Of a stretch of 54,942 bases of DNA, positions 4,016-51,943 are shown piece after piece (within the stretch, counting starts at the first letter, position 1; every line of letters starts with the position of its first letter). A model generated the notes under the pieces. It searched no databases, was not told the origin of the DNA, and was given only the letters and a program-made list of their open reading frames with translations. Location of the stretch: the NCBI GenBank assembly GCA_023485405.1, contig JAMCZU010000006.1, positions 1 through 54,942 of the forward strand. The letters are read 5' to 3'. The DNA comes from Patescibacteria group bacterium. GTDB lineage: Bacteria; Patescibacteriota; UBA1384; UBA12157; JAENIV01. A program made the position numbers and the translations under genes.

Positions 4016-4408
4016 ATGATTAATTTTGAAAAATTCTTAACAAAAAGTTATATTTTCGAAATAACGCCCACAACTGTTGGTTTTTATAAATACCTAGCAA
4101 TTGTTTTTGGTTTATTTATTCTGACGGCGTTGATTTTAATAGTAAAATCAAAGAGAAAAGAAGAGATTTGGAAAAATCTTTATGTCAAAATTATCAATTT
4201 GCTTTTATTTGGTGGTGCTTTTGGCTTAATTCTTATCTTTTTTCGCTACGAAGGCATTCCTTATCTTGGTAGTAGACTATTTCTTTTAATCTTGTTGCTG
4301 AGTTTAACTTTTTGGACAATGACAATAGTTTGGTATAGATTTAAAATTTTACCTTATAAAATTAAAGAACATCAAAAGCGAAAAGCTTTTGAAAAATACC
4401 TACCTTAA
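4016..4408 (+). CDS. Hypothetical membrane protein
   Basis: 130 aa with 3-4 hydrophobic segments. No family recognised. Confidence 0.5.
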   Translation: MINFEKFLTKSYIFEITPTTVGFYKYLAIVFGLFILTALILIVKSKRKEEIWKNLYVKIINLLLFGGAFGLILIFFRYEGIPYLGSRLFLLILLLSLTFWTMTIVWYRFKILPYKIKEHQKRKAFEKYLP

Positions 4409-4463
4409 GGCAAGCCAAAAGGCTTGTCCTGAGCGTAGTCGAAGGATGGGATAAAGGATAATA

Positions 4464-5645
4464 ATGAAAAATTCTGAAACAATGAAAGATTTGGCCACTA
4501 ATTTGGGTAGTAGACTTGTGCCTATTCACAATGGAGAATTAGCTGAAGTAAAAATCCTCCAAATTTTAAAGAACAAAATGATTGTTGATGTTGGTGGGTT
4601 TACGCTTGGAATTATTCCAGAGCAAGAATTTTCACCCGAAGTTGGAGATTTTAAAGTTGGCGATAAGATGCTAGCTTATGTTCTAACGATTGAAAATGAC
4701 GAAGGTTATGTTATTTTATCACTTCGTCGAGCCGACAAAGAAAGAGTTTCAAAAATTCTTCATGACAAATTTGAATCAGGTGAAGTTTTACCAATTAAAG
4801 TCTTAGATGCCAACAAAGGTGGTCTTCTTTGCCAATTTGGCGATTACGAAGGTTTTTTGCCGGTTTCGCAATTAGCCACTTCACACTATCCAAAAGTAGC
4901 TTCTGGTAATCGTGAAGAAATTTTTAGTCGTTTAAAATCTTTAGTCGGACAGACTTTACAGGTCAAAGTTTTGAGTTTTGAGCCGGGTTCGGGAAAGTTA
5001 ATTTTTTCTGAAAAAGCGGCTGGTGATATTGCTCAATTTGAAAAAATTAAAGGTATTAAGATTGATGATGTTTTGGAAGGTGAAATAACTGGAATTGTTG
5101 ATTTTGGTTTATTTGTCAAAATAAAAATTGATTCAGATGAAGTTGAAGGACTTGTTCATATTTCGGAAGCTTCTTGGGAACACATTGATGACTTAAAAAG
5201 CAAATTTAAAATTGGCGAGAAAATTACGGTCAAAGTTATTTCAAAAGAAGATAATCGTTTATCGCTTTCTTTGAAGCGTCTAGAACCAGATCCTTGGCTT
5301 AAATTAGCGTCATCTTGTAAAGTTGGTGATGTGGTGGACGCAAAAGTAACTAAAATTACTCCTTTTGGTGCTTTTGTAAAATTGGGCACGATTGATGGTT
5401 TAGTGCATATTTCCGAGCTTGGTGATAAGGTAGCTGATCCTAAAGCCATCGTTGAAGAAGGAAAATCTTATAAATTTAAAATTATGTCCATTGAGCCAGA
5501 GTTACATAAATTAAGCCTTTCATTAAAAGCGGTGGCAGAAAAAGAGACTCCAGTAAAAAAAGAAGAAGCAAAAGTGGAAAAACCAAAAAAAACCAAAAAA
5601 ACGCTCAAAAAAACTGTAACTAAGGCTAAAAAAGGAGAGGAATGA
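4464..5645 (+). CDS. rpsA: 30S ribosomal protein S1 (four S1 domains, Lys-rich tail)
   Basis: Repeated S1-domain signatures (GEITGIVDFGLFVKI, AKVTKITPFGAFVKL, LVHISE). Confidence 0.85.
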   Translation: MKNSETMKDLATNLGSRLVPIHNGELAEVKILQILKNKMIVDVGGFTLGIIPEQEFSPEVGDFKVGDKMLAYVLTIENDEGYVILSLRRADKERVSKILHDKFESGEVLPIKVLDANKGGLLCQFGDYEGFLPVSQLATSHYPKVASGNREEIFSRLKSLVGQTLQVKVLSFEPGSGKLIFSEKAAGDIAQFEKIKGIKIDDVLEGEITGIVDFGLFVKIKIDSDEVEGLVHISEASWEHIDDLKSKFKIGEKITVKVISKEDNRLSLSLKRLEPDPWLKLASSCKVGDVVDAKVTKITPFGAFVKLGTIDGLVHISELGDKVADPKAIVEEGKSYKFKIMSIEPELHKLSLSLKAVAEKETPVKKEEAKVEKPKKTKKTLKKTVTKAKKGEE

Positions 5646-11378: not shown

Positions 11379-11522
11379 AAGATCTATAGATGGTATGATT
11401 ATATTCTGACCTCATCTTTATGGTGAGGTTTTTGGTATCCAATCAAAATTGCGGTATACTATTTATATACATGGATTTAAGAATCCAGTTTTTGCTGTAT
11501 TAAAGTTGAGATATCCCACAGA

Positions 11523-11630
11523 ATTGCTTTCTTTGCAACGGACTACGTCCTGTACGCAAAGAAGCGCAATCAGCGGGACTTCCTGAACTCCGCTTCCGCT
11601 TTCGCGGAGCGCGTCTTCAGGAGCGAAGGT
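11523..11630. repeat. Dispersed repeat family B, diverged copy 2, plus second nested palindrome (cctgaa-ctccgc...gcggag-...ttcagg)
   Basis: ctttctttgcaacggactacgtcctgtacgcaaagaagcg is related to copies at 1507 and 23925. Confidence 0.6.
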
Positions 11631-15017: not shown

Positions 15018-15922
15018 AAAAGATTTTATTTATTATTTTTATTATTATTTTTACAGCGATTGCGGGGTTTGCGATTTATTTTTATATTAATCTAAGTAAA
15101 AAAGGCAGTGGCCAGGTAAAAGACTTTATTGTCCGTTCTGGTCAAAGCACGCGTGAAATTGGCGATAATCTTCAAAAAGAAGGACTGATTTCTTCTGCTA
15201 CTGTTTTTACTTATTATGCTAAAATGCGGGCTGATTTGATCCAAGTTGGGGTTTATAAAATAGCGCCGACCCAATCAATCAAAGAAATATTAGCGGTTTT
15301 AACTTCTGGCAAAACCTCTGAAGATATTATTACTATTCCGGAAGGTTGGCGGGTAACCCAAATTGACGACTTTCTTACACAAAAGAAAATTATCCAAAAA
15401 GGAACATTGCTTCAAATTGCCTCGGCTAATGAAGGTTTTTTATTCCCCGACACTTATCGTTTTATGCCTAACACTAAACCTGAAGAGATTCGTCAAGAAA
15501 TGCTTGATAATTTTAATCAAAAAACCACTGATCTTAAAGTCACGCGGGAAAATATTATTTTGGCTTCTATTGTGGAAAGGGAAGCTAAATTTGATGAAGA
15601 TCGAGCGAAAATTGCGGGGGTTTACCTAAATCGTCTGGCACAAAATATGAAATTACAAGCTGACCCAACGGTTCAGTATGCTAAGGGGAGTTGGGACCCA
15701 ATTACAGTTTCTGATTATAAAAATGTCAACTCACCTTACAATACTTATCAAAATTTAGGCTTACCGCCTGGACCAATTTGTAACCCAGGAATTAAATCAA
15801 TTGAGGCTGCTTTACATCCGGAAAAAAGTGACTATCTTTATTTTTTTCATAAAAGTGATGGTCATGCGGTTTTTTCAACCACCCTCCAAGAACACGAAGC
15901 AAAGTTAAAACAGTCTAATTAA
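15014..15922 (+). CDS. mltG: Endolytic murein transglycosylase MltG (YceG family)
   Basis: PEGWRV, EGFLFPDTY, ASIVEREA and LPPGPICNPG motifs. Confidence 0.85.
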   Translation: MKKILFIIFIIIFTAIAGFAIYFYINLSKKGSGQVKDFIVRSGQSTREIGDNLQKEGLISSATVFTYYAKMRADLIQVGVYKIAPTQSIKEILAVLTSGKTSEDIITIPEGWRVTQIDDFLTQKKIIQKGTLLQIASANEGFLFPDTYRFMPNTKPEEIRQEMLDNFNQKTTDLKVTRENIILASIVEREAKFDEDRAKIAGVYLNRLAQNMKLQADPTVQYAKGSWDPITVSDYKNVNSPYNTYQNLGLPPGPICNPGIKSIEAALHPEKSDYLYFFHKSDGHAVFSTTLQEHEAKLKQSN

Positions 15923-16098
15923 CCAAAATGTCCACCTCGTAGGTGGACAACAGGTTTAGGAATGTAAAGAACTATTGACAAAAAGGCTATTTTAAGGTAT
16001 AATAATATTTAATATTGAGTAGTTTAACAATTTTTCCTTGGAGCTTATTTGGTCGGGAAAATGGTCAGTTTATCCTGATTAGGTAAGCTCTAAGGAGC
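15919..16098 (+). repeat. 180-bp cassette 5' module, copy 1 (family A hairpin, promoter and structured leader)
   Basis: Near-identical (a handful of substitutions) to 50746-50925. Confidence 0.9.
15975..16003 (+). promoter_or_regulatory. Consensus sigma70 promoter of the DGR target gene
   Basis: TTGACA, 17 nt, TATAAT. Confidence 0.7.
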
Positions 16099-16147
16099 AA
16101 ATAGAGGAAGGTATACCTCGTTAAAAAACCAGAAGGAGAAGTAACCG

Positions 16148-16816
16148 ATGGAAAAAGATCGAGTTACCCTCGAACCGGCAGCAGAGGACTACGGTAGAAG
16201 ATGTAAGAGCATTGGCTTGGAGCGGAAGACTGTAGCTGATTTGCAAGATGCGATGAGTCATCCGGAATTCAAGACCAGCCATCACACTCTTCTCGACAGA
16301 TTGGCTGTTGAGTATCGCTTGAGCAAACCGCTCATAGAGCGGCCGCCCTTCGCAACGATCCAGATCGGAACCTTCAAGAATCTGAACAATCTTCGGAGTG
16401 CGTTGAAGAATGCCAAGTGCAACATCTCAAGCTACGCTGACGATCTCTTTGGTCGAGTTACCTTGGCTACGGAGCCGATGATCCTCGACCTCTGCCGAGC
16501 TTCCAATGCCGAACTTGGTTTGACCCAGGGTGGCACGGTTGCTCAGACGTTCGAGGCGATCGCCAAGATTGGTGGCGAGAAGCTTCCGGCGGAAGCTGGA
16601 CCGCAGTATCGTCTGCAGAATCTCGACCAGAAATTGGGTGAATGGGAACTGATTTATATGGATCCCATCATCGACCGCGTTGGTTGCCCGGACGTGTTCA
16701 GCGTCGAGCACGGCAAGGGCGGTCTCTGGCTCTACGGCTACAATGCCAGTCCTGACTACTTCTACCACGCCGAGTTCGTCTGGGTGTTCAGTCGCAAGCG
16801 ATCTGTTGGTTCTTGA
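16148..16816 (+). CDS. DGR target (variable) protein, 222 aa, GC-rich, no signal peptide or TM visible
   Basis: AAGGAG lies 9 nt before the ATG. The last 44 codons are the VR matching the downstream TR. Confidence 0.85.
   Translation: MEKDRVTLEPAAEDYGRRCKSIGLERKTVADLQDAMSHPEFKTSHHTLLDRLAVEYRLSKPLIERPPFATIQIGTFKNLNNLRSALKNAKCNISSYADDLFGRVTLATEPMILDLCRASNAELGLTQGGTVAQTFEAIAKIGGEKLPAEAGPQYRLQNLDQKLGEWELIYMDPIIDRVGCPDVFSVEHGKGGLWLYGYNASPDYFYHAEFVWVFSRKRSVGS
16665..16797 (+). repeat. DGR variable repeat (VR)
   Basis: Gapless 133-bp alignment with TR at a 531-bp offset. 16 mismatches, all opposite TR adenines. Confidence 0.9.
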
Positions 16817-16857
16817 GTTTTGGATTCTTGTTCCTTTTGTTTTTTTGGGTTTTGTCT

Positions 16858-16879
16858 GGGCCCCGCGTGAGCGGGGCCC
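16858..16879 (+). terminator. GC-rich hairpin about 60 nt downstream of VR (terminator and/or DGR homing-associated hairpin)
   Basis: gggccccgc-gtga-gcggggccc. The same hairpin recurs at 51705-51726. Confidence 0.55.
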
Positions 16880-16976
16880 AATTTGTATCAACAAATTGGG
16901 TTTTCCGAAAAAAATTTTCGTATTTAATCTTCCATCAAACTTGACAGATGAGTACTCTTTAAGGAAAAATGAATAT

Positions 16977-17370
16977 GGTATTAGGTGAATATGCGGGTGG
17001 TTATGGCTTCCCGCTACCGAGCCTAAGTATCGCTTTTTATCCAGAGTGTTCCCAGCTACGGCTTGGGGCAGAGCGATAAGCGAATGCTTAAAAAAATGAA
17101 GATGCTTGGTGCAAGGCGCTAGTGGGTTAAATGGCCCAGAATAAAATACAGTCCTGAGAGCAATCGAAGGACAGTGACTATAGAGAGCGTCTGGTACAAA
17201 ATCGACCGCGATGGTTACCCGAACGTGTTCAACGTCGAACACGACAAGGACGGTCTCTGGCTCAACGGCAACAATGCCAATCCTGACAACTTCTACCACG
17301 CCGAGAACGTCTGGGTGTTCAGTCGCAACTTTCTTCATTTCTCCCGTAGTAAACGGGAGTTTTGCTTTTT
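16977..17370 (+). ncRNA. Putative DGR template RNA (structured 5' region, TR and 3' hairpin); ends approximate
   Basis: Possible promoter TTGACA (16941-16946), 18 nt, AAAAAT. Several GC stems upstream of TR. Hairpin ctcccg-tagtaaa-cgggag plus ttttgcttttt at 17341-17370. Confidence 0.4.
17196..17328 (+). repeat. DGR template repeat (TR)
   Basis: See VR. About 38 adenines, many in AAC codons. The 5' boundary is uncertain by a few nt. Confidence 0.9.
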
Positions 17371-17710
17371 AGTTGAGACTTCTTATCCATCCACCGAGCA
17401 TTCTACCAATTTCTTGTAGATTTTCCGAGAGTGATAAATATCTTTTAGTTGATATGGCTTTAACGTCTTCGGCCAATCGAAGCAAATTTTTAAGTAAATC
17501 AAGTTTGGCTGATGCTACTGACAGGGTTTCGAGCTTTTGATGTTTACCTTGATGACTTGCCAAAATTAAATCTTTAAAAAGTTCAAGTATGGTTTCTTGG
17601 ATTCTTTCGCCTAAAACATAGCGATCTTGCTTAGGAATGTGAGGATACAGTTTATATAATTCGCGATAAAAATCGTAGACCTTTTGAACAATTGGAACAT
17701 CATTATTCAT
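17369..17710 (-). CDS. avd: DGR accessory variability determinant (Avd-like four-helix-bundle protein), about 113 aa
   Basis: From the internal ATG at 17710 (AGAGG 6 nt upstream): MNNDVPIVQKVYDFYRELYKL...IGRMLGGWIRSLN, typical of the Avd / 23S-IVS family. Lies between TR and RT but on the opposite strand. Confidence 0.75.
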   Translation of the reverse strand: MNNDVPIVQKVYDFYRELYKLYPHIPKQDRYVLGERIQETILELFKDLILASHQGKHQKLETLSVASAKLDLLKNLLRLAEDVKAISTKRYLSLSENLQEIGRMLGGWIRSLN

Positions 17711-18721
17711 GGATAACCTCTTTAATAAAATTATTTCAATAGAAAACTTATTTTTGTCTTGGAAAGAATTCAGAAAAGAAAAACGTAAGAAAGCCGATGT
17801 ACAAGAATTTGAGCGGAATTTAGAAGATAATCTTTTTAGTCTGCATCTGGAGCTTAAAAACAAAACTTACCAACATTCCGATTATACCTCATTTTACATT
17901 ACTGATCCAAAATCAAGGCATATCCACAAGGCGTGCGTAAAAGATAGAATTGTCCATCATGCGATTTATCGAGTACTATATCCAATGTTTGATCCGATTT
18001 TTGTGGATGATTCCTATTCTTGTCGTAATAAAAAAGGAACACACAAAGCGGTAAAACGATTAGAAAAATTTAGCCGAATTGTAAGTCACAATTATAATAA
18101 ATCTTGCTGGGCGTTAAAATGTGATATTAAAAAATATTTTGCTTCAGTTAATCATCAAATCCTTTTTGGTTTAATTAAAAATAAAATTCAAGATAAAGAT
18201 GTTCTATGGCTAATTTTTGAAATAATTTCCAGTTTCACAACTCGAGAGAGAGAGAGAGAGGAATACCGATTGGCAATTTAACATCACAACTTTTTGCCAA
18301 TATTTATTTAAACGAGTTGGACCAATTTGTTAAACATCGTTTAAGGATTAAGTACTATCTTAGATACTGTGACGATTTTATTATTTTAGACAATAACCAT
18401 TTAAATTTAGAAAATCTTATTGGTCAGATTCAATTCTTTCTCGATTGCCAGCTTGGTTTGAAACTGCATCGGAGAAAAATTATTATTCGAAAACTTAATC
18501 AAGGAATTGATTTTCTAGGCTATATGATTTTACCACACTATATCTTGCCTAGAAGAAGAACTGTCCGCCGAATTTTTCGAAGTCTAGAGAAAAAAGTTAC
18601 TACCGAACCACAAAAAGCCAATGCCAGTTTGCAATCGAACTTGGGTTATCTAAATCATGCCAATGCCTACAAAATTTCAAAGGCCTTAAAGAAGATTTGC
18701 AAAAAAATTAAAACAATCTAA
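17709..18721 (+). CDS. DGR reverse transcriptase, interrupted by a +2 frameshift in a (GA)8 tract (two ORFs, 17709-18281 and frame-2 continuation to 18721)
   Basis: RT motifs CDIKKYFASVNH, then in the next frame GIPIGNLTSQLFANIYLNELD (DGR-type), YCDD and GIDFLGY. Removing one GA unit gives one continuous ORF. Confidence 0.85.
18244..18260. repeat. (GA)8G dinucleotide tract inside the RT gene
   Basis: Direct reading. Confidence 0.95.
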
Positions 18722-18729
18722 TTAAAAAA

Positions 18730-22015: not shown

Positions 22016-23914
22016 ATGTCAATCTTTGATTTATATGATGATCATTATTTACCGGGAGACAAATCAGGGCGAAATTTGCGTCAGGATGTGTTAGAGTATG
22101 ATCATTTTGATAAAGATGCTACGGGTGTAGAAATCTTTCAAGAAAAAAAGAAGTCTTTTTGGCTACCGTATCTATTTTCTTTTTTAGCTTTTAGTATACT
22201 TTTAGTACAACTTTTAAGATTGCAAATTACGCAGGGAAGTTTTAATCGAAACTTAGCTGAAGGAAACCGCGTTCGTTCTCGAGAAATTGCCGCACCACGA
22301 GGATTAATTTATGATTCCTCTGGAAAAATTTTAGCTCAAAATAAAGCTTCTTTCAATTTAGAGATTTATCCTTTAGATTTTCCTCGAAATGCTAAAGAGA
22401 AAGAGGAAATTTTCCAAAAATTATCAGAGATTACCCAAATTCCCAAGACAGAAATACAAGATAAAGTGACTAAAAAAGGTTTTTTAACCTATGATCCGAT
22501 TGTTTTAAAAGAAAATCTTGATCGCGATACAGCCATGATTTTAGAGTATAAAACAATTAATTTACCAGGAGTGGTGGTAGCTAAAGATCCAGTGAGAGAA
22601 TATCAATCGATTTCTGGTTTGGGCCCTGTTTTAGGTTATGTTAGTAAGGTGACTGATCAAGACTTAAAAAATCATCCCGATTACCGATTGTCAGATGAAA
22701 TTGGTCAAGAAGGTTTGGAGTCGTTTTACGAAAAATATTTAAGAGGGAGACCAGGAGTTTTAGAAATTGAGGTTGATTCCCGTGGTCGTCAACAAAGACA
22801 ACTTTCCGCTACTTCTCCTTCGCCTGGTAATAATTTAACTTTGAGTATTGATGCGGGGCTGGAGGCAAAAATGGCCGAAACTTTAGGAGCGGAAGTAAGC
22901 GCCGTTAATTCTCCGGGTGGGGCCGTGGTAGCGGTTAACCCTCAGACGGGTCAAATTCTAGGGATGGCGAGCGTTCCCACTTTTGATAATAATATTTTTA
23001 CTTCTTTAAATATGAGCGAAGAGTACACGAAACTCATTAATGACCCGTCGAAACCAATGTTTAATCGAGCAATTTCTGGGACTTATCCATCTGGTTCAAT
23101 TGTTAAACCTATTGTAGCGGCGGCTGGTCTTCAGGAAGGGATTATTACGGCTAACACAACGATTAACGCGCCGGGTGAGATTAAAGTTGGTAATTGGACT
23201 TATCCGGACTGGAAAGTCCATGGCTTAACTGATGTTCGTAAAGCGATTGCTGAAAGTGTGAATATATTTTTCTATGCCTTGGCTGGTGGCTGGGATAAGA
23301 TTAAGGGTTTAGGTATTGCTAAACTCGATGATTACTTAATTAAATTTGGTTTTCAGGACAAAACGGGGATTGATTTACCGGGGGAAGCAAGTGGTCTTGT
23401 GCCGACGCCTGAGTGGAAAGAGAAAAATAAAAAGGAAATTTGGTATTTAGGGGATACTTATCATTTAGGGATTGGTCAGGGAGACTTTTTAATTACTCCT
23501 TTACAAATGGCGATGGCCACATCGGTCATTGCCAATGGTGGCGAACTTTTACGACCGCAAATTGTTTCGAAAATTACCGATAAAGATGGTCATGTAGTAA
23601 AAGATTTTCAGAAAGATATCAAAGCTAAAAATTTAATTGACGATCAAAATCTCCAAGTAGTGCGTGAAGGGATGCGTCAAGCGGTCACTTCCGGATCAGC
23701 TAAACGTTTAAGTGACTTGTCAGTACCAGTCGCGGCTAAAACAGGGACCGCTCAATTCGGTGCTGATGGTAAAACCCACGCTTGGATGACAGCTTTTGCA
23801 CCTTATAATAATCCTCAAATTATGATTGTGGCTTTGGTTGAAGAAGGGGGTGAGGGCTATGCAACGGCGGGTCCCGTAGTGTATGATATTCTCAATTGGT
23901 ATTTTAACCATTGA
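22016..23914 (+). CDS. mrdA: Penicillin-binding protein 2 (peptidoglycan D,D-transpeptidase)
   Basis: SGSIVKP (SxxK), SVN and KTGTA motifs. Follows mreBCD. Confidence 0.85.
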   Translation: MSIFDLYDDHYLPGDKSGRNLRQDVLEYDHFDKDATGVEIFQEKKKSFWLPYLFSFLAFSILLVQLLRLQITQGSFNRNLAEGNRVRSREIAAPRGLIYDSSGKILAQNKASFNLEIYPLDFPRNAKEKEEIFQKLSEITQIPKTEIQDKVTKKGFLTYDPIVLKENLDRDTAMILEYKTINLPGVVVAKDPVREYQSISGLGPVLGYVSKVTDQDLKNHPDYRLSDEIGQEGLESFYEKYLRGRPGVLEIEVDSRGRQQRQLSATSPSPGNNLTLSIDAGLEAKMAETLGAEVSAVNSPGGAVVAVNPQTGQILGMASVPTFDNNIFTSLNMSEEYTKLINDPSKPMFNRAISGTYPSGSIVKPIVAAAGLQEGIITANTTINAPGEIKVGNWTYPDWKVHGLTDVRKAIAESVNIFFYALAGGWDKIKGLGIAKLDDYLIKFGFQDKTGIDLPGEASGLVPTPEWKEKNKKEIWYLGDTYHLGIGQGDFLITPLQMAMATSVIANGGELLRPQIVSKITDKDGHVVKDFQKDIKAKNLIDDQNLQVVREGMRQAVTSGSAKRLSDLSVPVAAKTGTAQFGADGKTHAWMTAFAPYNNPQIMIVALVEEGGEGYATAGPVVYDILNWYFNH

Positions 23915-23924
23915 CCCCGCCAGA

Positions 23925-24001
23925 ATTCCTTTCTGCAAAACGGACTACGTCCTGTTATTGCAGAAGCGTCATCTGCGAGGGTCTGCGTCACCGGCTTGAC
24001 A
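23925..24001. repeat. Dispersed repeat family B, copy 3, ending in the greA -35 box
   Basis: ctttctgcaaaacggactacgtcctgttattgcagaagcgtc...ggcttgaca matches 1507-1593. Confidence 0.8.
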
Positions 24002-24607: not shown

Positions 24608-26173
24608 ATGGTTATGTTTTGGGCAGATGAAATCGTTGAAGATATTATTAAAAAAATTCCCAAAGATTCATATTTGGTGACCGATTGGATGACTACTTCT
24701 GGTCATGCTCATGTTGGCTCACTTCGAGGAGTAATAGTTCACGATTTAATCAAACGTGGTCTTTTAACAAATAATAAAAAAGCCGAATTTCAATGGGGTT
24801 TTGACGACTTTGATCCGATGGACGGTTTGCCAAGTTATTTAGATGAAAGTTGGCTACAATATATGGGAAAACCTTTGTGTAATATTCCAGCGCCGGATGG
24901 TAATTCTGAAAGTTTTGCTAAACAATATGGTGCAGAATTTGAAGAGGTTTTTACCAAATTGGGAGTTAAGCCAAAAATAGTTTGGACGTCAGAACTTTAT
25001 AAAAAAGGGGAATTTAATGAGTCAATAAAAATTATTTTAGATCATGCGACAGAAATTAGAAAAATTTACAAAGAAATTTCTGGATCAGATAAGGGTGATA
25101 ATTGGTATCCTTTTCAGGTTATTTGTCCAAAATGTGGTAAAATCGGCACAACTAAAGTGACCGGTTGGGACGGTCAGGAGGTTGAATTTACCTGCGAAGA
25201 AAATTTAGTAGAATGGGCTCAAGGTTGTGGCTATAAAGGTAAAGTTTCGCCATTTGATGGTAATGGTAAATTACCATGGAAAGTAGAATGGCCATCAAAA
25301 TGGTATATTACTAAAACTGATATTGAAGGTGAGGGTAAAGATCACTTTGCCTCTGGCGGTTCTCGTGATATTGCAGATATTATCTTTCGAGAAGTTTTTA
25401 AAAAAACTCCCCCCTATGATATTCGTTACGAACATATTTTGATTGGTGGTGCTAAAATGTCCTCATCTAAAGGTTTGGGTGTGACGGCTAAAGATATGGC
25501 CGATTTTCTTCCAGGGAATATCTTAAGATTTCTTTTTGTTCGAACGCGTTATAAAAGAGCCATTGATTTTCAGCCAGAAGGCGAGACTATTCCTTTGCTT
25601 TATGATGAATTTGATCGTGCTTGGATGGCGTATAACACCGATCCAAAATTGGATTTAAGTCGCGCTTTTTATTATACGGAAATTGATCCAGATAAGAAGC
25701 AATTAAAATATCTTTTGCGATTTTCTAAGATTGCTTACATGCTTCAAATGCCACATGTGGATATTTTTGAGTATGCCAAAGTTGAAAAAGAAGAAGATCT
25801 AACTGAAATTGAACGTCAGGAAATTGAAGATCGAATTATGGTAGCTAAAGTTTGGCTTGAAAAATTCGCTCCGGAAAGTTATAAATTTACAATTTGTGAA
25901 AAATTACCGGAAATAGCAAAAGAAATATCAGCGCAGCAAAAAGAATTTTTAAAGAAAATTTTAGAGACAATTAAATCAAAAGATTTTACAGGTGAGGATT
26001 TGCATCAAGAAATTCATCAGATTAAAAAAGAGACAGGAATTCCACCCCGCGATGCTTTTTCAGCGATTTATTTAGTGTTTTTGGGTAAAGATTCCGGTCC
26101 GCAAGCTGGTTGGTTGCTGGCTAGTTTAGATAAAAATTTTGTTTTAAAGAGACTTGAGGAGGTTATTTCTTAA
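24608..26173 (+). CDS. lysS: Lysine--tRNA ligase, class I
   Basis: HVGSLRG (HIGH-like) and KMSSSKG (KMSKS), with the overall class I LysRS layout. Confidence 0.8.
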   Translation: MVMFWADEIVEDIIKKIPKDSYLVTDWMTTSGHAHVGSLRGVIVHDLIKRGLLTNNKKAEFQWGFDDFDPMDGLPSYLDESWLQYMGKPLCNIPAPDGNSESFAKQYGAEFEEVFTKLGVKPKIVWTSELYKKGEFNESIKIILDHATEIRKIYKEISGSDKGDNWYPFQVICPKCGKIGTTKVTGWDGQEVEFTCEENLVEWAQGCGYKGKVSPFDGNGKLPWKVEWPSKWYITKTDIEGEGKDHFASGGSRDIADIIFREVFKKTPPYDIRYEHILIGGAKMSSSKGLGVTAKDMADFLPGNILRFLFVRTRYKRAIDFQPEGETIPLLYDEFDRAWMAYNTDPKLDLSRAFYYTEIDPDKKQLKYLLRFSKIAYMLQMPHVDIFEYAKVEKEEDLTEIERQEIEDRIMVAKVWLEKFAPESYKFTICEKLPEIAKEISAQQKEFLKKILETIKSKDFTGEDLHQEIHQIKKETGIPPRDAFSAIYLVFLGKDSGPQAGWLLASLDKNFVLKRLEEVIS

Positions 26174-26213
26174 CCCCAATGTCCACCTCGTAGGTGGACA
26201 ACAGGTTTAGAGG
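26171..26213. repeat. Hairpin family A copy (taacc-ccaa-tgtccacct-cgt-aggtggaca-acaggtttagagg)
   Basis: Same core as 15921-15960 and 50748-50787. Begins at the lysS stop codon. Confidence 0.85.
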
Positions 26214-26323
26214 TTAATTAAAATCAGGTCGAAAGACTTGATTTTTTGGTATAATAATGATAAATTGCCAATATAGTCTTAGGGTTTACTAAGGCAGAAC
26301 GGCTGATAAGGAGGTGAAACGAG

Positions 26324-39949: not shown

Positions 39950-41818
39950 ATGGGGAAGACAAAGTATTTATTAATTTTTCTTTTTAGTCTTATTTGTGTT
40001 ATTTTGGGGACTCAAAAAACCCATGCTGTTACCAATGATCCCACTTCGGAAGTGGGAGTGGTTATCAATGAAGTAATGGCGAATGCACCGACACCAGAGG
40101 ATAAATTGGAATGGGTTGAGCTTTATAATCCAGGGGATATACCAATTGATCTCAAAAATTGGACGTTCGGTAGCAAAGTTATTTCCACGACGTCTTTAAT
40201 TTTGGAACCAGGAAAATATTTAGTTTTAGCTCGAAATAGTGATGCTTTTAAATTGCAATGGCCAAATGTGATAGCACTAATTATTCAAATTTCGATGTCT
40301 TTAACTAATAGTAATGACACAGTTATTTTAAAAAATGCTGATGGTACTTATCAGGAAGAATTCTCTTGGGTGAGCGATACTGGTGACAATATTTCTTGGG
40401 AGAGAATTGACCCATTGGTTTCTTCTAATAATAATTGGGCACCATCACTTATTATTGGTGGCACGCCAGGCGAAAAAAATTCTGTTTTTGATCTTTCGCC
40501 TCCCCTTTCGCCTACTCTTTTATCACCGCAAAATAATATGGAACTAGCAAATGCGACATCTTTAGAATTTAGTTGGCAAATTCAAAATGGTTTAAAATAT
40601 GAATTTATTTTATCAAAAGAATCTGATTTTAAAGATTTTATTTACGACGAACCAAATTTAACGACTGGAAAATTTCTAACCGAAGATTTAAAGCCGGGAA
40701 CATATTATTGGAAAGTCATTGCCACAAATATTCTTGGTGAGACATCATCAGAAATTTTTTCTTTTGAAATTTCCCCACCGATTTATTCTTCCGCCATCAT
40801 TATTAATGAAATCTATCCAGATCCTACTAGCGGTGAAGAATGGATTGAACTTTACAATGATTCGGCCGAAGATGTAAATCTAAAAAATTGGATTTTAGAA
40901 GATTTAAAAGGCAGTGTTCATCAATATAAAATTGATAATGATTTGGTTATCCTGGCTTTTGGTTATTATCAAATTTTAAAATCACAAAGCGGCATTACAC
41001 TAAATAACGACCAAGACGGCGTGCGACTGACCCGGCCGGACGGAGTTGTGCTTTTTGAAACACCAATTTTTTCTGGTGGTCAAAAAGGTTGGAGTTTTGC
41101 GAGAAATTCTACTGGTATTTGGCAGTGGACAACTGAAATCACACCAACAGCTACAAATATTGTTTCTGTACCGGTAGTCGAAGAAACTATTGTTAATGAA
41201 GAAGAAAATACTCCTAAAAACACCGCGCCAATCGAAATAAAAACCGGTGAAATTCAAAATCACGAAGATTATTTAGTTAAAATTACCGGTGCGGTGGTGG
41301 AAACTTCTGGAAACACATTTTATCTTGATGATGGTTCAGGTAAAGCCAAAATCTATATTCAGGCAGCTGCTGGCATAGACAAGCCCGAAATGCACTCCGG
41401 TGATATTTTTGAAGTCACTGGTATTGTTAATTTGTATCGTAATATTTGGCGTGTTTTGCCGCAAAAACAAGATGACATCAAATTAGTTAAAGCTAAGGAA
41501 GAAAACCAAGAAATTGTTGTCTCAAACGCTAAAAAATCTACCACCAAATCTTCAACCGCCAGTACCGCCAAAGTGGCGACTACCACCGCTAAAGCGCGGG
41601 CACCGACAAGTAAAAAAGTTGCTTCAGCAAATACAAATATTGGTAATTTAAGCAATAATATTCAGGTTGGTGGTTACAAATCATCATTTTGGATCGAAAT
41701 GATCAAGGTTGTTATTGGACTCTCTGTTGTTTTTCTGGTAATATTGATTATCAAGCTCTGGAAAATGAAAAAGGACAATTTGCCGATCGGAGGAAATTTT
41801 GGCGATGATTTCACGTAA
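39950..41818 (+). CDS. Cell-surface protein with two lamin-tail (LTD) domains, OB-like region and C-terminal TM anchor
   Basis: Signal peptide. VVINEVMANAP...EWVELYNPG and IIINEIYPDP...EWIELYNDS. C-terminal hydrophobic helix. Confidence 0.6.
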   Translation: MGKTKYLLIFLFSLICVILGTQKTHAVTNDPTSEVGVVINEVMANAPTPEDKLEWVELYNPGDIPIDLKNWTFGSKVISTTSLILEPGKYLVLARNSDAFKLQWPNVIALIIQISMSLTNSNDTVILKNADGTYQEEFSWVSDTGDNISWERIDPLVSSNNNWAPSLIIGGTPGEKNSVFDLSPPLSPTLLSPQNNMELANATSLEFSWQIQNGLKYEFILSKESDFKDFIYDEPNLTTGKFLTEDLKPGTYYWKVIATNILGETSSEIFSFEISPPIYSSAIIINEIYPDPTSGEEWIELYNDSAEDVNLKNWILEDLKGSVHQYKIDNDLVILAFGYYQILKSQSGITLNNDQDGVRLTRPDGVVLFETPIFSGGQKGWSFARNSTGIWQWTTEITPTATNIVSVPVVEETIVNEEENTPKNTAPIEIKTGEIQNHEDYLVKITGAVVETSGNTFYLDDGSGKAKIYIQAAAGIDKPEMHSGDIFEVTGIVNLYRNIWRVLPQKQDDIKLVKAKEENQEIVVSNAKKSTTKSSTASTAKVATTTAKARAPTSKKVASANTNIGNLSNNIQVGGYKSSFWIEMIKVVIGLSVVFLVILIIKLWKMKKDNLPIGGNFGDDFT

Positions 41819-42296
41819 TACAGGGGAGACAATTGAATCTGCTCAAAAATTTGCTAAAAAATTAAAAGGTGGGGAGACAATTGGTTTAATTGGCGATTTG
41901 GGTGCTGGCAAGACCGTTTTTGTTAAAGGTTTAGCCGAAGAATTGGGAATTAAAGAAGCAATTACTAGTCCTACTTTTGTAATTTTGAAGGAATATGATA
42001 TTTTACGACCCAGACCCCACCTGTCAGGTGGAGGGAAGGGGTTAAAAAAGCTTATTCATATTGATACCTATCGGGTAGAAAATATCGAAGATATTAAATC
42101 GGTCGGGATTGAAGATTATTTTGGCCGCAAAGATATTATTATAGTAGTGGAATGGGCCGAAAAAATTAAAAAACTTTTACCAAAAAATACTATTTATATA
42201 AACTTTAAACATATTGACAAAAATTCTCGGGAAATATCAATTTTTAACCGAGTGTCCACCTACGAGGTGGACAACGGGTTTAGGGGTACAAAATGA
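41799..42296 (+). CDS. tsaE: tRNA t6A biosynthesis ATPase TsaE, carrying repeat-derived in-frame segments
   Basis: GDLGAGKT P-loop, SPTFV and HIDTYR. Confidence 0.75.
   Translation: MAMISRNTGETIESAQKFAKKLKGGETIGLIGDLGAGKTVFVKGLAEELGIKEAITSPTFVILKEYDILRPRPHLSGGGKGLKKLIHIDTYRVENIEDIKSVGIEDYFGRKDIIIVVEWAEKIKKLLPKNTIYINFKHIDKNSREISIFNRVSTYEVDNGFRGTK
42245..42287. repeat. Hairpin family A copy inside the tsaE 3' coding end (loop inverted: acg instead of cgt)
   Basis: taacc-gag-tgtccacct-acg-aggtggaca-acgggtttagggg. Confidence 0.8.
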
Positions 42297-48980: not shown

Positions 48981-50711
48981 ATGAAGAAAAAAACACAAAA
49001 TGTTCTCATTGAGCTTTTATTAGTCTTTTTTATGTTGGCTAATCTTTTGGTTTTTTCGACCGCTTACGGATTTTATGGGGTTAACAATTTGTCTATCACT
49101 CGAATCATGCCGGCTCAGCGAAATTTGGCTGATCAGCGAATGAAGGCGGCGGGGATTGGCTGGGCTAGAGAAGAATTTAATTGGGGATTGATTGAGCCGA
49201 GAAATAACCGTTGGAGTTGGGCAAATCCCGATCAGGCCATGGCCACACATCGTCGCAATGGTGTTCAAGTTGTTGGTATGTTGGCCTATACTGCATCATG
49301 GGCTTCAAGTTGTGGTGGTGCTAACGCTCAATTTTGTAAGCCTAATATTAATGAGTGGAAAGACTATGTTGGCGCGGTGGCCCGTCGTTATGGCGATGTT
49401 ACTAACTGGGAGATTTGGAATGAACCAAACGCTTTTTGGCGGCCCAGTCCTAATCCGGATGAATACCGAGAAATTTTAGTCGCAGCTTACGATACGATAA
49501 AATCAATTAACCCTTCAGCCAAAGTAGCGAGCGGTGGCACAACTTATATTGATAATGATTTCATCAATAGCGTTTTAAATAATGGTGGTTGGGAACATCT
49601 TGATGCAGTGGCGGTCCACTACTATCCTGGAGCTGGGCCAGAATCGGTTCCCGGCAATCGTTTAAGAGAAGAGCTATTGAATCTTGAGAACAATACCATT
49701 GCACCTCACGGTGGTCCAAAAGAAATTTGGGTGACAGAGATGGGTTGGCAATCAAGTCAGATTGGACTAACAGCTCAAGCGGAAGTACTTTCCAGAGCGC
49801 TGATTATTGCCCGGACGGTCAATGAAGCACCTAAAATTTTAATTTATAATCTGCGTGATGATCCGACAGGTACTTATGGTTTGGTGGATAGAAGTTTTCG
49901 GCCAAAAACCGCTTATAATTATTATAAAAAAACCGTTGAGTTTTTGGGCAACAAATGGCCAGCGCAATTAATTGATTTAGACGATGGTTCAAAGTTTTAT
50001 GTTTTCGATGGACCGGGTGGGCCAATGGCGGCAGCCTGGAATCCTGACGGCACGCGGGTCAAAGGCTTTCATATTAATTCTTCCAGTATCCGTTGTTACG
50101 ATATTACGGGGCAATCTACTACTACCACAAGAAGTAAAACAGGTACGGTTACTAACAACCGAAATATTGATGTTACTTCGAGTGTAGTTAAAAGTTGGAA
50201 TAATGGTGATGTCACTTTAGAATTTAAATCGCGGCCAATTTTTTGCCAGCTAAGCAATTTCTCCGCTTTAAACACGGTGCCTTCAAGTAACCTGCCTCAA
50301 GTGGCGGGAGCAAGTATTAAAGCTCAAGTGGCGGGAGTAACAAGTGTAGATGTGGCCACTCAAAATAATTCTCTGTCCAAAATTACCGGTAGTATTCAGA
50401 ATGAATTTTCGGGCGCGATGGATGCAAAAGTCATTGCTTACAAAGAGAACGGTTCGACTTGGCAAAAACAAAGTGAAACTTCGACCAATGGTGGCTCATA
50501 TAGTTTAGATCTACCGGAGGGAAAATATTATCTTGCTTATAAAATGCCTGGGTTGCTAACCAGTCGAACGGAGCCTTTTGAGGTTAAAGGCGATTCTGAT
50601 ATTAGTCTAGAAACAAGGCTTTTGAGTAGTTGGGTGGCTTATAGTATTTTATTGGGTGGTGTTGTGATTTTAATTTTGTTTATTTTGAAATATACTCGTC
50701 GAAAAACCTAA
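48981..50711 (+). CDS. Clan GH-A glycoside hydrolase (GH5/GH39-like) with C-terminal beta-sandwich region and TM anchor
   Basis: WEIWNEPN (acid/base Glu) and WVTEMGW (nucleophile Glu). N-terminal signal/TM and C-terminal TM. Confidence 0.65.
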   Translation: MKKKTQNVLIELLLVFFMLANLLVFSTAYGFYGVNNLSITRIMPAQRNLADQRMKAAGIGWAREEFNWGLIEPRNNRWSWANPDQAMATHRRNGVQVVGMLAYTASWASSCGGANAQFCKPNINEWKDYVGAVARRYGDVTNWEIWNEPNAFWRPSPNPDEYREILVAAYDTIKSINPSAKVASGGTTYIDNDFINSVLNNGGWEHLDAVAVHYYPGAGPESVPGNRLREELLNLENNTIAPHGGPKEIWVTEMGWQSSQIGLTAQAEVLSRALIIARTVNEAPKILIYNLRDDPTGTYGLVDRSFRPKTAYNYYKKTVEFLGNKWPAQLIDLDDGSKFYVFDGPGGPMAAAWNPDGTRVKGFHINSSSIRCYDITGQSTTTTRSKTGTVTNNRNIDVTSSVVKSWNNGDVTLEFKSRPIFCQLSNFSALNTVPSSNLPQVAGASIKAQVAGVTSVDVATQNNSLSKITGSIQNEFSGAMDAKVIAYKENGSTWQKQSETSTNGGSYSLDLPEGKYYLAYKMPGLLTSRTEPFEVKGDSDISLETRLLSSWVAYSILLGGVVILILFILKYTRRKT

Positions 50712-50745
50712 ATTTTTGTTCTCAAATCTTTTAATTTCAGGGGTG

Positions 50746-50925
50746 TTAACCAAAATGTCCACCTCGTAGGTGGACAACAGGTTTAGGAATGTAAAGAACT
50801 ATTGACAAAAAGGTTATTTTAAGGTGTAATAACATGTAATATTGAGTAGTTTAACAATTTTTCCTTGGAGCTTATTTGGTCGGGAAAATAGTCAGTTTAT
50901 CCTGATTAGATAAGCTCTAAGGAGC
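50746..50925 (+). repeat. 180-bp cassette 5' module, copy 2
   Basis: Near-identical to 15919-16098. Confidence 0.9.
50802..50830 (+). promoter_or_regulatory. Sigma70 promoter (copy of the DGR-target promoter)
   Basis: TTGACA, 17 nt, TGTAAT. Confidence 0.6.
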
Positions 50926-50976
50926 TATAAGATCGCGAAAATCCCTGAATCCTGAGTTTATCGAAGGACAGGTGCG

Positions 50977-51687
50977 ATGAAGAAAGGACTGACCATGTCG
51001 GAAGATATGCTCAGCAAGACGCTAGTCCGAGAGCTACCCGGACTGATGCGCGACTTCATGAAGAAAGTGCTCGGCGACAACGGACAAGAATGGATAGAGG
51101 CCTTCAAGAGGTTCTTGAAGAAGCAGAACCCTTGGTCCGATGCATCTTCGTCCAAACCAGCTAAGAAGCGTCTCAAAGTGCTCCAGCCACTAAAAGCGGT
51201 TGCCGAGTTCTTGATGACGTTGGAATTCCGAGCTGCTGACAACTTCAGTATCACACCGCAGGATCAGAAAACAACCGCAGAAGTAGTCATTGGTTTCCTT
51301 AATGACAACTTCAAGAACGCGTTTCTTGCGAACGGCGGAAAGGTCGAGACCAGCATCTTTGACTCCAAGCTTCGGCCTTATCGTCTCAAGAAGGCGTCGG
51401 TAGACGGTCCGATCATTGCTGATCTCGGCGGAGAAGAGAAGGTTGAGACCACTCTTGCCGAGATGTTCACGCTGATGAAGGCACAGGGCTGTGGACGGCG
51501 AGGCATCCTGCTAACTAATGGCTATGCCAACATCTTCTATGTAAGAGACGCTAAAGGTATACTTTGGGTGGTCTCTTGCGCTTGGTTCTCGGACGATCAG
51601 TTTTGGCTCGTTCGTGCCTATCCAATTACGGATCTGAGTACATGGAACGCTGAGCGTCAGGTGTTCTCTCGTGATTTTGGTTCTTAG
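50977..51687 (+). CDS. Paralog of the DGR target protein (236 aa), GC-rich, no TR-matching VR
   Basis: Shares the 5' module, the 3' flank and C-terminal pattern (..IF.V...KG.LW......VFSR..GS*) with CDS 16148-16816. Confidence 0.7.
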   Translation: MKKGLTMSEDMLSKTLVRELPGLMRDFMKKVLGDNGQEWIEAFKRFLKKQNPWSDASSSKPAKKRLKVLQPLKAVAEFLMTLEFRAADNFSITPQDQKTTAEVVIGFLNDNFKNAFLANGGKVETSIFDSKLRPYRLKKASVDGPIIADLGGEEKVETTLAEMFTLMKAQGCGRRGILLTNGYANIFYVRDAKGILWVVSCAWFSDDQFWLVRAYPITDLSTWNAERQVFSRDFGS

Positions 51688-51704
51688 TTTCTTTGGTCTT
51701 GTCT

Positions 51705-51726
51705 GGGCCCCGCATGAGCGGGGTCC
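51705..51726 (+). terminator. GC hairpin terminator (copy of 16858-16879) followed by T-rich tract
   Basis: gggccccgc-atga-gcggggtcc followed by aattttgttttgtttt. Confidence 0.7.
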
Positions 51727-51794
51727 AATTTTGTTTTGTTTTATCTTCCAATTTCAGGGGAAATTTGCTAAAATTAATGCAGAATGGGGAAAAT

Positions 51795-51866
51795 GCGGGA
51801 GTAGTTCATCGGTAGAACGTCTCCTTCCCAAGGAGAAGGCAGCGGGTTCAATTCCCGTTTCCCGCT
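51795..51866 (+). tRNA. tRNA-Gly (anticodon CCC), no encoded CCA
   Basis: Acceptor GCGGGAG/TTCCCGC. Anticodon stem TCTCC/GGAGA with loop TTCCCAA. GGTTCAATTCC. Confidence 0.85.
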
Positions 51867-51868
51867 TA

Positions 51869-51943
51869 GCCGGAGTAACTCAGGGGTAGAGTAGCTGTTT
51901 CGTAAATAGCAAGTCGCGGGTTCGAATCCCGCCTCCGGCTCCA
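51869..51943 (+). tRNA. tRNA-Thr (anticodon CGT), CCA encoded
   Basis: Acceptor GCCGGAG/CTCCGGC. Anticodon stem GCTGT/ATAGC with loop TTCGTAA. GGTTCGAATCC. Confidence 0.85.

Follow-up and report, generated by a model that had tools for sequence, protein, structure and literature searches.

An inserted expression unit for a putative diversity-generating retroelement target in a patescibacterial contig

A 54,942-nt contig of a Patescibacteria group bacterium (JAMCZU010000006.1 of the GenBank assembly GCA_023485405.1), referred to below in its full length as the window, raises the question of what a gene is that carries the promoter region of a diversity-generating retroelement (DGR) target and stands apart from the DGR. 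The window encodes one DGR with its adjacent target gene, P1. A second gene, P2, lies between a glycosidase-like gene and tRNA-Gly and has nearly the same flanks as P1. The initial annotation took the P2 locus for a second copy of the P1 cassette with a diverged body, bracketed by a target-site duplication. Comparison with loci of relatives (designated L001 to L030) leads, with a probability of about 0.7, to another description: P2 would be an inserted expression unit of a DGR target family, with no template in the contig and with modular, mosaic flanks.

Insertion of the P2 unit and its duplicated host sequence

The inserted unit spans 1,006 bp (50744-51749), and its GC-richer gene (~50% GC) stands in surroundings of ~35% GC. 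The host genome is patescibacterial, probably of Berkelbacteria. The features of the locus, in which VR and TR denote the variable region and template repeat of a DGR, IMH the initiation of mutagenic homing site, REP a repetitive extragenic palindrome, UTR an untranslated region, and ORF an open reading frame, are as follows.

48981-50711, plus strand: glycoside-hydrolase-like gene, conserved left neighbor of the insertion slot
50726-50743, no strand: left copy of the duplicated host sequence, ATCTTTTAATTTCAGGGG, with the perfect 11-mer at 50733-50743; contiguous with the ancestral glycosidase-proximal sequence
50746-50786, plus strand: REP-like palindrome at the left end of the unit, TTAACC..TGTCCACCT-cgt-AGGTGGACA..GGTTTAG, with a hairpin at 50756-50776
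50802-50830, plus strand: sigma-70-like promoter of P2, read directly; TTGACA at 50802-50807, a 17-nt spacer, TGTAAT at 50825-50830
50861-50924, plus strand: conserved 5'-UTR leader hairpin, type A, with the base CUCCUUGGAGC...GCUCUAAGGAG and a variable distal stem
50932-50977, plus strand: second leader hairpin, specific to the P2 family, GAUCGCG...CCCUGA...CAGGUGCGAU
50995-51687, plus strand: P2 coding sequence, 230 aa; the ORF open from 50977 would give 236 aa
51564-51676, plus strand: VR-like region of P2, delimited by column entropies and by homologous VR/TR pairs in L001, L003, L025, and L028
51660-51674, plus strand: IMH-like 3' end of the VR, GGTGTTCTCTCGTGA; matches the end of the VR/TR homology in orthologues and is unique in the window
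51704-51737, plus strand: GC-rich hairpin of the P1 type (51704-51727; TGGGCCCCGC-ATGA-GCGGGGTCCA) and T-run 3' of P2
51743-51760, no strand: right copy of the duplicated host sequence, ATCTTCCAATTTCAGGGG, with the perfect 11-mer at 51750-51760; runs on into the conserved upstream region of tRNA-Gly, AAATTTGCTAAAAT
51795-51943, plus strand: tRNA-Gly(CCC) and tRNA-Thr(CGT), conserved right neighbors of the slot

The 11-mer AATTTCAGGGG is found exactly twice in the window, both strands included (at 50733 and 51750), with no further copy at one mismatch; shuffled sequences give a chance expectation of ~1.9 matches for an 11-mer with one mismatch. The duplication can be counted as 11 bp without mismatches or as 18 bp with two (16/18), reading ATCTT, then TT or CC, then AATTTCAGGGG. 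The order tRNA-Asp, glycosidase-like gene, variable content, tRNA-Gly, and tRNA-Thr is kept in five relatives, and the 11-mer is present in relatives as a single copy within the conserved ATCTTTWAATTTCAGGRGAAATTTG. Thus, L011 and L009 have one copy of (T/A)TCTTT(T/A)AATTTCAGGAGAAATTTG right before tRNA-Gly (TTCTTTTAATTTCAGGAGAAATTTGCTAAGAT in L011 and ATCTTTAAATTTCAGGAGAAATTTGTTATAAT in L009), and L010, with just 86 nt between the glycosidase-like gene and tRNA-Gly, represents a nearly empty site. When 50744-51760 is taken out, the window aligns with the relatives across the junction: the left host flank reads ...TCTTTTAATTTCAGGGG, and the empty-site junction would put AAATTTGCTAAAAT directly after it. 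In L008, the closest relative at this slot, whose neighbor gene is 83% identical at the amino acid level, the contig ends 95 nt past that gene and diverges after ATCTTTT, leaving no clean empty site. The 11-mer is a genuine duplication of host sequence, as the initial annotation had supposed, and the P2 unit, composed of a promoter, a gene, and a terminator, is a discrete insertion.

In L011, this slot is occupied by a small ORF; in L014, by a gene called spoVS-like on the basis of its translation rather than of a domain search; and in L009, by a complete DGR. Since its content differs among these three loci, the slot before tRNA-Gly is an insertion hot spot. The DGR of L009 fills the slot, with the end of its reverse transcriptase (RT) gene abutting ATCTTTAAATTTCAGGAG, the 18-mer; this RT is 80% identical to that of the window in its N-terminal part and 58% in its C-terminal part.

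The resident DGR of the window, with P1, is a discrete insertion as well, between mltG and csrA. Its features are the following.

15905-15922, no strand: left 18-nt duplication copy, TTAAAACAGTCTAATTAA, at the 3' end of mltG; flanks the whole DGR insertion
15919-16105, plus strand: P1 copy of the shared 5' module, with the REP-like palindrome, TTGACA-17-TATAAT, and the type-A leader hairpin
16148-16816, plus strand: P1, the DGR-adjacent target gene, 222 aa, with its VR at 16670-16797
16857-16934, plus strand: P1 3' module, from the GC hairpin (16857-16880) out to ATCTTCCA at 16927-16934
17201-17328, plus strand: TR of the resident DGR, 90% identical to the P1 VR, with mismatches at TR adenines
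17369-17710, minus strand: accessory gene bAvd (Pfam bAvd, E 2.7e-23)
17709-18721, plus strand: DGR RT gene (RVT_1), in two frames, split at a (GA)8 tract at 18244-18259
18708-18725, no strand: right 18-nt duplication copy, TTAAAACAATCTAATTAA, followed by the ancestral mltG/csrA terminator

Two copies of TTAAAACA(G/A)TCTAATTAA enclose the 2.8 kb from the REP-like palindrome to the end of RT, and the RT reading frame terminates within the right-hand copy. The sequence to the right of the insert starts with AAAAGCCGAGCGGG, and the empty-site junction would join the end of mltG directly to it. The site is empty in the closest relatives, L016, L017, and L019, which have mltG, then the terminator, then the convergent csrA; L016 and L017 belong to Berkelbacteria GW2011_GWA1_36_9, with an mltG 86% identical to that of the window. 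Other DGRs or targets of these families follow greA in L021, a dinB-like gene in L023, and a serine recombinase gene in L001; in L002, the location is between the two transketolase genes, and in L004 and L030 it is beside Y1 transposase genes. The location of DGRs and their targets is therefore not conserved among relatives.

No terminal inverted repeats join the insert ends at 50744-51749 or at 15923-18707. No transposase is encoded in the P2 unit, which has P2 only, or among the ORFs scanned for domains, a scan that was not exhaustive for the window. Direct repeats of at least 11 nt are not found around the stand-alone homologue in L002. An integrase-type att duplication is unlikely: the duplicated sequences of the two insertions are unrelated, and there is no integrase among the ORFs scanned.

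The (GA)n tract of RT is located directly before the GxPIGNLTSQ motif; n = 8 is out of frame, and n = 7 or 10 would be in frame. L009 has (AG)9 (4615-4640) and an intact RT, and L025 has ~(GA)15 (3050-3085) and a split RT. The tract may be a slipped-strand ON/OFF switch of the DGR, or its length may represent the consensus of a mixed population.

The P2 family and the search for a template

Residues of P2 are numbered here by the 236-aa form of the ORF (start 50977); the likely start, judged from the alignment of homologues and their upstream sequences, is the ATG at 50995 (MSEDML...). The family comprises at least 269 homologues. They come from Patescibacteria and from metagenomes of the groundwater type, and all are unannotated and lack Pfam domains. 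P2 itself has no Pfam, NCBIfam, or PDB-sequence match. Its AlphaFold model has a predicted local distance difference test score of 91.5, and a Foldseek search with this model finds no match in PDB or BFVD (best E 0.36-0.9). By inspection, P2 lacks a signal peptide and membrane segments and is apparently cytoplasmic.

In the alignment of the P2 family, ten columns have an entropy above 3 bits, the threshold used here for hypervariable positions (aa 200, 202, 204, 211, 213, 215, 219, 221, 224, and 227). The residues W203, W210, V212, A214, W223, V229, and R232 form an invariant scaffold between them, and the pattern is limited to the last ~40 residues. Such an alternation of invariant and hypervariable positions at the C terminus is the hallmark of DGR variable regions. 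In P2, the ten hypervariable codons (TCT GCT TTC CTC CGT TAT GAT AGT AAC CGT) all end in a pyrimidine, a weak but consistent indication of AAY-templated mutagenesis. Several orthologues have the expected counterpart. P0002 (L001; 79% identical to P2) and P0009 (L025; 59%) both have an adjacent TR: in L001, the VR at 4503-4616 is matched by an adenine-mismatched TR at 4993-5106, and in L025, a TR, bAvd, and RT are preceded by two P2-family targets in tandem (54-1615), each with its own 3' GC hairpin. P0030 (L003) has a VR/TR pair and an RT, and L028 has a VR/TR pair of the same family. The IMH-like GGTGTTCTCTCG is conserved where the VR/TR homology of the orthologues stops. By homology and by its VR pattern, P2 is a member of a DGR target family.

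The sequence searched for P2 is this one 55-kb contig, and the absence of a TR applies to the contig, not to the genome as a whole. An ungapped scan of 51540-51690 against both strands of the window gave at best 60% identity over 40 nt, and the sole match to degenerate IMH and scaffold patterns in the window is the gene itself. The resident TR (17201-17328) is ruled out as a template of P2, as the two do not align. In the defining test, the pairing of VR and TR, P2 fails within its contig, and its orthologues in L001, L003, L025, and L028 pass. Compared with the orthologous TR, P2 has differences at positions other than adenines and L220 in place of a near-invariant scaffold proline. Because there is no cognate TR in the contig and the resident TR serves the P1 family, P2 is an orphan or remote target; in the absence of a second TR in the rest of the genome, it is frozen. 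The earlier view of the two genes, one linked to the DGR and the other not or no longer diversified by it, holds to the extent that P1 has a template and P2 has none in the contig.

Remote targets, and multiple targets of one DGR, are known. P2 could be an active remote target, with its TR elsewhere and with RT and Avd supplied in trans by 17369-18721 or by another copy. Its VR scaffold is intact, every hypervariable codon has the form NNY, the IMH-like motif is there with a GC hairpin downstream of it, and dispersed architectures occur in relatives (a target with a TR and no RT in L029; stand-alone targets in L002, L004, and L007). However, there is no TR in 55 kb, the sole RT seen is out of frame in the assembly, and the non-adenine differences and L220, as judged from the orthologous TR, would fit drift. 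Continued activity of P2 is a tentative and rather doubtful proposition.

Two loci illustrate the dispersal of components in other genomes. L030 (1-1677) encodes a P1-type target with ~150 nt of the DGR-RNA leader region, then a REP, GAGAACCGTCCCCTATGG, and a RAYT-like Y1 gene (RAYT, REP-associated tyrosine transposase), with an inverted copy of the REP upstream of the gene; TR, avd, and RT are missing, and this locus is an independent example of an orphaned target. L029 (5050-6620) encodes a target of a third family (272 aa) with the same leader hairpin, a palindrome upstream, and its own TR, paired with its VR, 460 nt downstream; no Avd or RT is nearby, and the next gene is gyrB. In these genomes, the components of DGRs are evidently scattered.

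Mosaic flanks and the origin of the unit

The 5' flanks of P1 and P2 (15919-16105 and 50746-50932) are 95% identical over 187 nt, differing at ~10 positions, and the 3' flanks (16841-16884 and 51688-51731) are 89% identical over 44 nt, so that the similarity noted at both ends by the initial annotation is borne out by alignment. Both loci have a 3' hairpin with a 10-bp GC stem and a 4-nt loop, and downstream of it the motif ATCTTCCA, which occurs nowhere else in the window. The GC hairpin of P2 looks like an intrinsic terminator and could also serve as a DGR target hairpin. The promoters differ by a single change in the -10 hexamer (TATAAT at 15998-16003 in P1 and TGTAAT in P2; A to G at -11). 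Owing to the G at position 2 of this hexamer, the P2 promoter, which the initial annotation had read in the same way, is not listed in the consensus scan. Similar promoters precede homologues, e.g., in L002.

The 13-bp leader stem described earlier is the base of a longer, 24- to 29-bp hairpin. In an alignment of 8 sequences from 7 loci, it has 24 consensus pairs, 5 of them with compensatory changes, and an RNA fold z-score of -5.6. A search against Rfam gave no match for this leader at the gathering threshold, and the hits in 50700-51000 were just at chance level (E of 1 or worse). This hairpin precedes P2-family genes (L001, L021, L023, L026, and L028), P1 of the window, and the third target family in L029. 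The second leader hairpin is kept in L001, L021, L023, L025, and L026 and is absent upstream of P1.

These modules do not travel together. P2 orthologues match P2 in the distal leader and in the first 16 nt beyond the stop codon, and then have a different hairpin, CCGCCCCGAAGGGGCGG; the hairpins of L004 and L030 are of the P1 type, which is the one found 3' of P2 in the window. Conversely, the closest homologue of P1 (L030; 72% amino acid identity) has a near-identical 3' flank and a different leader, of the type found in L009. The window thus combines P1 with a P2-type 5' module and P2 with a P1-type 3' hairpin. The conserved flanks are separable modules and not one cassette backbone. Both units are mosaics, which implies probable recombination between cassettes within the lineage. 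The suggestion that they form a mobile or recombining cassette family therefore stands as far as discrete insertion and mosaic modules are concerned; classical transposition finds no terminal inverted repeats or transposase to support it.

The REP-like palindrome is a 41-nt imperfect palindrome with the core TGTCCACCTcgtAGGTGGACA and a DNA fold z-score of -3.6 to -4.3; the palindromes match no known RNA families. Its four copies in the window lie at gene 3' ends (15919, 26170, 42243, and 50746), three of them at the left ends of GC-richer units (15919, 26170, and 50746) and one, at 42243, alone. The solo copy (42243-42283) falls within the 3' end of the ORF 41799-42296, shortly ahead of the next ORF, whose start overlaps. 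The unit at 26170-26960, between lysS and a gene starting at 26990, begins with the same palindrome, has its own promoter, and ends with a terminator and TTTTATCTT; its two small ORFs (26324-26584 and ~26518/26583-26898) have no Pfam or NCBIfam match. In L004, a Y1_Tnp gene (4178-4852) lies between identical hairpins (4160-4174 and 4872-4886) that are similar to the palindrome of the window. No RAYT gene was identified in the window by a search that was not exhaustive.

The account preferred here, an inserted P2 expression unit of a DGR target family, would work as follows. P2 would be transcribed from its own, somewhat weakened promoter through a structured leader. Given a matching TR RNA, Avd, and RT in trans, its VR would be rewritten via the IMH-like GGTGTTCTCTCG and perhaps the GC hairpin; in the orthologues, the downstream TR, bAvd, and RT would rewrite the VR at AAY-templated codons. 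As to its origin, the unit might be the remnant of a second complete DGR insertion in the slot, a proposal that is somewhat more open to doubt than to belief. A second DGR with an 18-nt duplication would once have occupied the slot, as in L009, and would have lost TR, avd, and RT through a deletion reaching from ATCTTCCA, where the target unit ends, to ATCTTTTA, where the right-hand duplication begins. Such a deletion would account for the mismatches of the 18-mer at two positions, for the occurrence of ATCTTCCA at both loci, and for the lack of a TR. Alternatively, the target unit alone may have been mobilized.

Several points weigh against the preferred account or its parts. The second position of the -10 hexamer is normally critical; the -10 hexamer of P2 is predicted to be weaker than that of P1, and expression of P2 is uncertain and may be lower. 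The GC hairpin is located 30-60 nt past the IMH-like sequence and may be a mere terminator. The left-hand copy of the duplicated sequence is not seen in L009, and a common ancestral DGR insertion in the slot is therefore not demonstrated. The deletion relies on the 8-nt motif ATCTTCCA, common to the 3' flank of P1, which might be shared by chance. The target with a TR and no RT in L029 indicates that dispersed components do occur. Finally, no enzyme or end structure explains a duplication of 11-18 bp, and Y1/RAYT transposases are not known to make target duplications.

Movement of the unit as a non-autonomous element is unlikely, whether the host enzyme were a REP-associated Y1 transposase acting on the left palindrome or the DGR RT acting through cDNA; the identity of the flanks would then stem from recent duplicative transposition of a common chassis into which different ORFs recombine. 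A REP-like palindrome marks the exact left end of three units, P1-family cassettes have RAYT-like neighbors in L004 and L030, DGRs and targets occupy differing sites (at mltG, greA, glycosidase-like, dinB, and serine recombinase genes), and both insertions have long target duplications, all of which would fit such an element. However, Y1 transposases are not known to leave duplications and require a related hairpin at either end, whereas the left and right hairpins of the unit are unrelated, and the window has yielded no RAYT gene. A cDNA of the unit's transcript would lack the promoter and the REP. For the same reason, an origin of the unit as a retrocopy, by target-primed reverse transcription, is unlikely: a retrocopy would lack a promoter, while the unit holds its own promoter and REP and has no A-tail or other poly(A)-type tail.

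A paralogous, transposon-like second P1 cassette with a diverged body and an 11-bp target-site duplication, as first proposed, is decidedly improbable. The duplication is real, the insert ends within ~2 nt of the ends of the P1 homology (TTAACC at its left end, ATCTTCC(A) at its right end), and the third unit, at 26170, has the same ends. The bodies, as the initial annotation stated, share only a C-terminal pattern: BLASTP aligns the C-terminal 17 aa of P1 and P2 with 7/17 identities (E 0.038). A comparison of the two profiles by hhalign aligns the C-terminal halves with an E of 0.0046 and a probability of 7.6%, and the order of predicted helices and strands in the confident models of P1 and P2 agrees with this alignment. 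A very remote common origin of the VR-bearing domain is thus possible. However, a profile hidden Markov model built from 120 members of the P2 family does not match P1 even with filters off. P1 belongs to a family of 31 proteins with its own VR pattern, and its model has weak C-type-lectin-like matches in Foldseek (E 0.07-2.7; TM-score of ~0.45 on the target). The families are distinct, with P1 and P2 each having orthologues of its own (60-80% identity), and the flanking modules are found independently of each other in other genomes. Because the flanks are 95% identical while the bodies cannot be aligned, the two units did not arise by duplication followed by divergence; divergence of the bodies from a common copy is impossible on that timescale. 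In addition, neither terminal inverted repeats nor a transposase is present. Sequence comparison thus indicates that P2 is probably not a diverged second copy of P1.

That nothing was inserted, and that the repeat and the flank identity reflect chance or an assembly artifact, is very improbable: a genome of 35% GC has many short AT-rich repeats, and ~1.9 one-mismatch matches are expected in shuffles, yet there are two exact copies only, each adjoining a different half of what relatives have as a single-copy sequence, and the ~10 differences in 187 positions of the flanks, together with the independent conserved synteny of each locus, exclude an assembly duplication.

The window contains further structured elements away from these loci. 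A c-di-GMP-I-GGC riboswitch (1630-1715; 68.7 bits) precedes the ORF 1718-2023. A leader consisting of a promoter and a hairpin, TTGACCCC...CTTTCTGCAAAACGGACTnCGTCCTGTTATTGCAGAAG, is present three times, in or by GC-richer stretches (1482-1562, 11519-11575, and 23900-23980). A long inverted repeat, CCGGGTAGTGAAACTTCGACA ... TGTCGAAGTTCTACTACCCGG, with a stem of ~21 bp and no Rfam match at the gathering threshold, also occurs three times (32149-32236, 32625-32952, and 35413-35498).

Relation to known systems

P2 shares with known DGR target genes the alternating invariant and hypervariable C-terminal VR, the IMH-like end, and the GC hairpin, and its orthologues have TR, bAvd, and RT. It differs in having no cognate TR in the contig, where the resident TR belongs to the P1 family, and in a structural model with no C-type-lectin or other known fold detected by Foldseek, whereas P1 is weakly C-type-lectin-like. 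Patescibacteria have their own clade of DGRs (PMC8144416). In the DGR of phage BPP-1, target recognition involves the IMH and a downstream hairpin or cruciform, with a required sequence immediately downstream (Guo et al. 2011, PMC3240598). Similarly, a GC-rich stem with a 4-nt loop is found 3' of the VR in P1, P2, and all homologues examined, with the structure kept and the stem sequence varying. In the window, however, the hairpin is 30-60 nt beyond the end of the VR/TR homology and is followed by a T-run, and it may be a terminator.

The four 41-nt imperfect palindromes at gene ends in 55 kb resemble REP/RAYT systems (Y1_Tnp, PF01797), as do the hairpins on both sides of Y1_Tnp in L004 and the REPs and RAYT-like gene that border the P1-type cassette of L030. 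In contrast, the palindrome of the window is at the left unit ends only, the insertions have 11- to 18-bp duplications, and no RAYT is identified. A discrete insert, a flanking direct duplication, and empty sites in relatives are also properties of non-autonomous elements related to insertion sequences, such as miniature inverted-repeat transposable elements. The unit differs from these in having no terminal inverted repeats or transposase, in an unusually long duplication that varies in length and perfection, and in carrying a full expression unit of the cellular type. Single-gene cassettes offer a further comparison, namely phage morons and, as a looser analogy, integron cassettes: the unit is a GC-richer gene with a promoter and a terminator between housekeeping genes, in a slot that holds different cargo in relatives. 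However, there is no prophage context, no attC or integrase is seen, and, unlike integron cassettes, the unit has its own promoter.

In the usual view, DGRs are domesticated retroelements that do not move by themselves and are carried by phages, plasmids, or chromosomes. No description was found of clean insertions, with long duplications and with empty sites in relatives, of both a DGR and a separate target unit, of shuffling of promoter, leader, and hairpin modules among target families or a conserved leader hairpin 5' of DGR targets, or of a dinucleotide-repeat frameshift in a DGR RT. Literature searches on target-site duplication or mobility of DGRs and on phase-variable DGR RT returned nothing relevant. 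A more general, speculative, and on balance improbable view would treat DGRs and target units of Berkelbacteria-like bacteria of the candidate phyla radiation as mobile or exchangeable modules that insert with 11- to 18-bp duplications by an undescribed mechanism; genomes would gain, swap, and orphan hypervariable genes, with RT toggled by the (GA)n tract.

The loci described here make the gain and loss of DGR targets testable in a clade in which DGRs are very common, and they raise the question of the mobility of the DGR components themselves. If no second TR exists, P2 would be a naturally occurring case of a variable gene frozen once its template was lost. Candidates for experiments are the large, structurally unassigned family of DGR targets to which P2 belongs and the conserved, structured leader RNA that precedes DGR targets.

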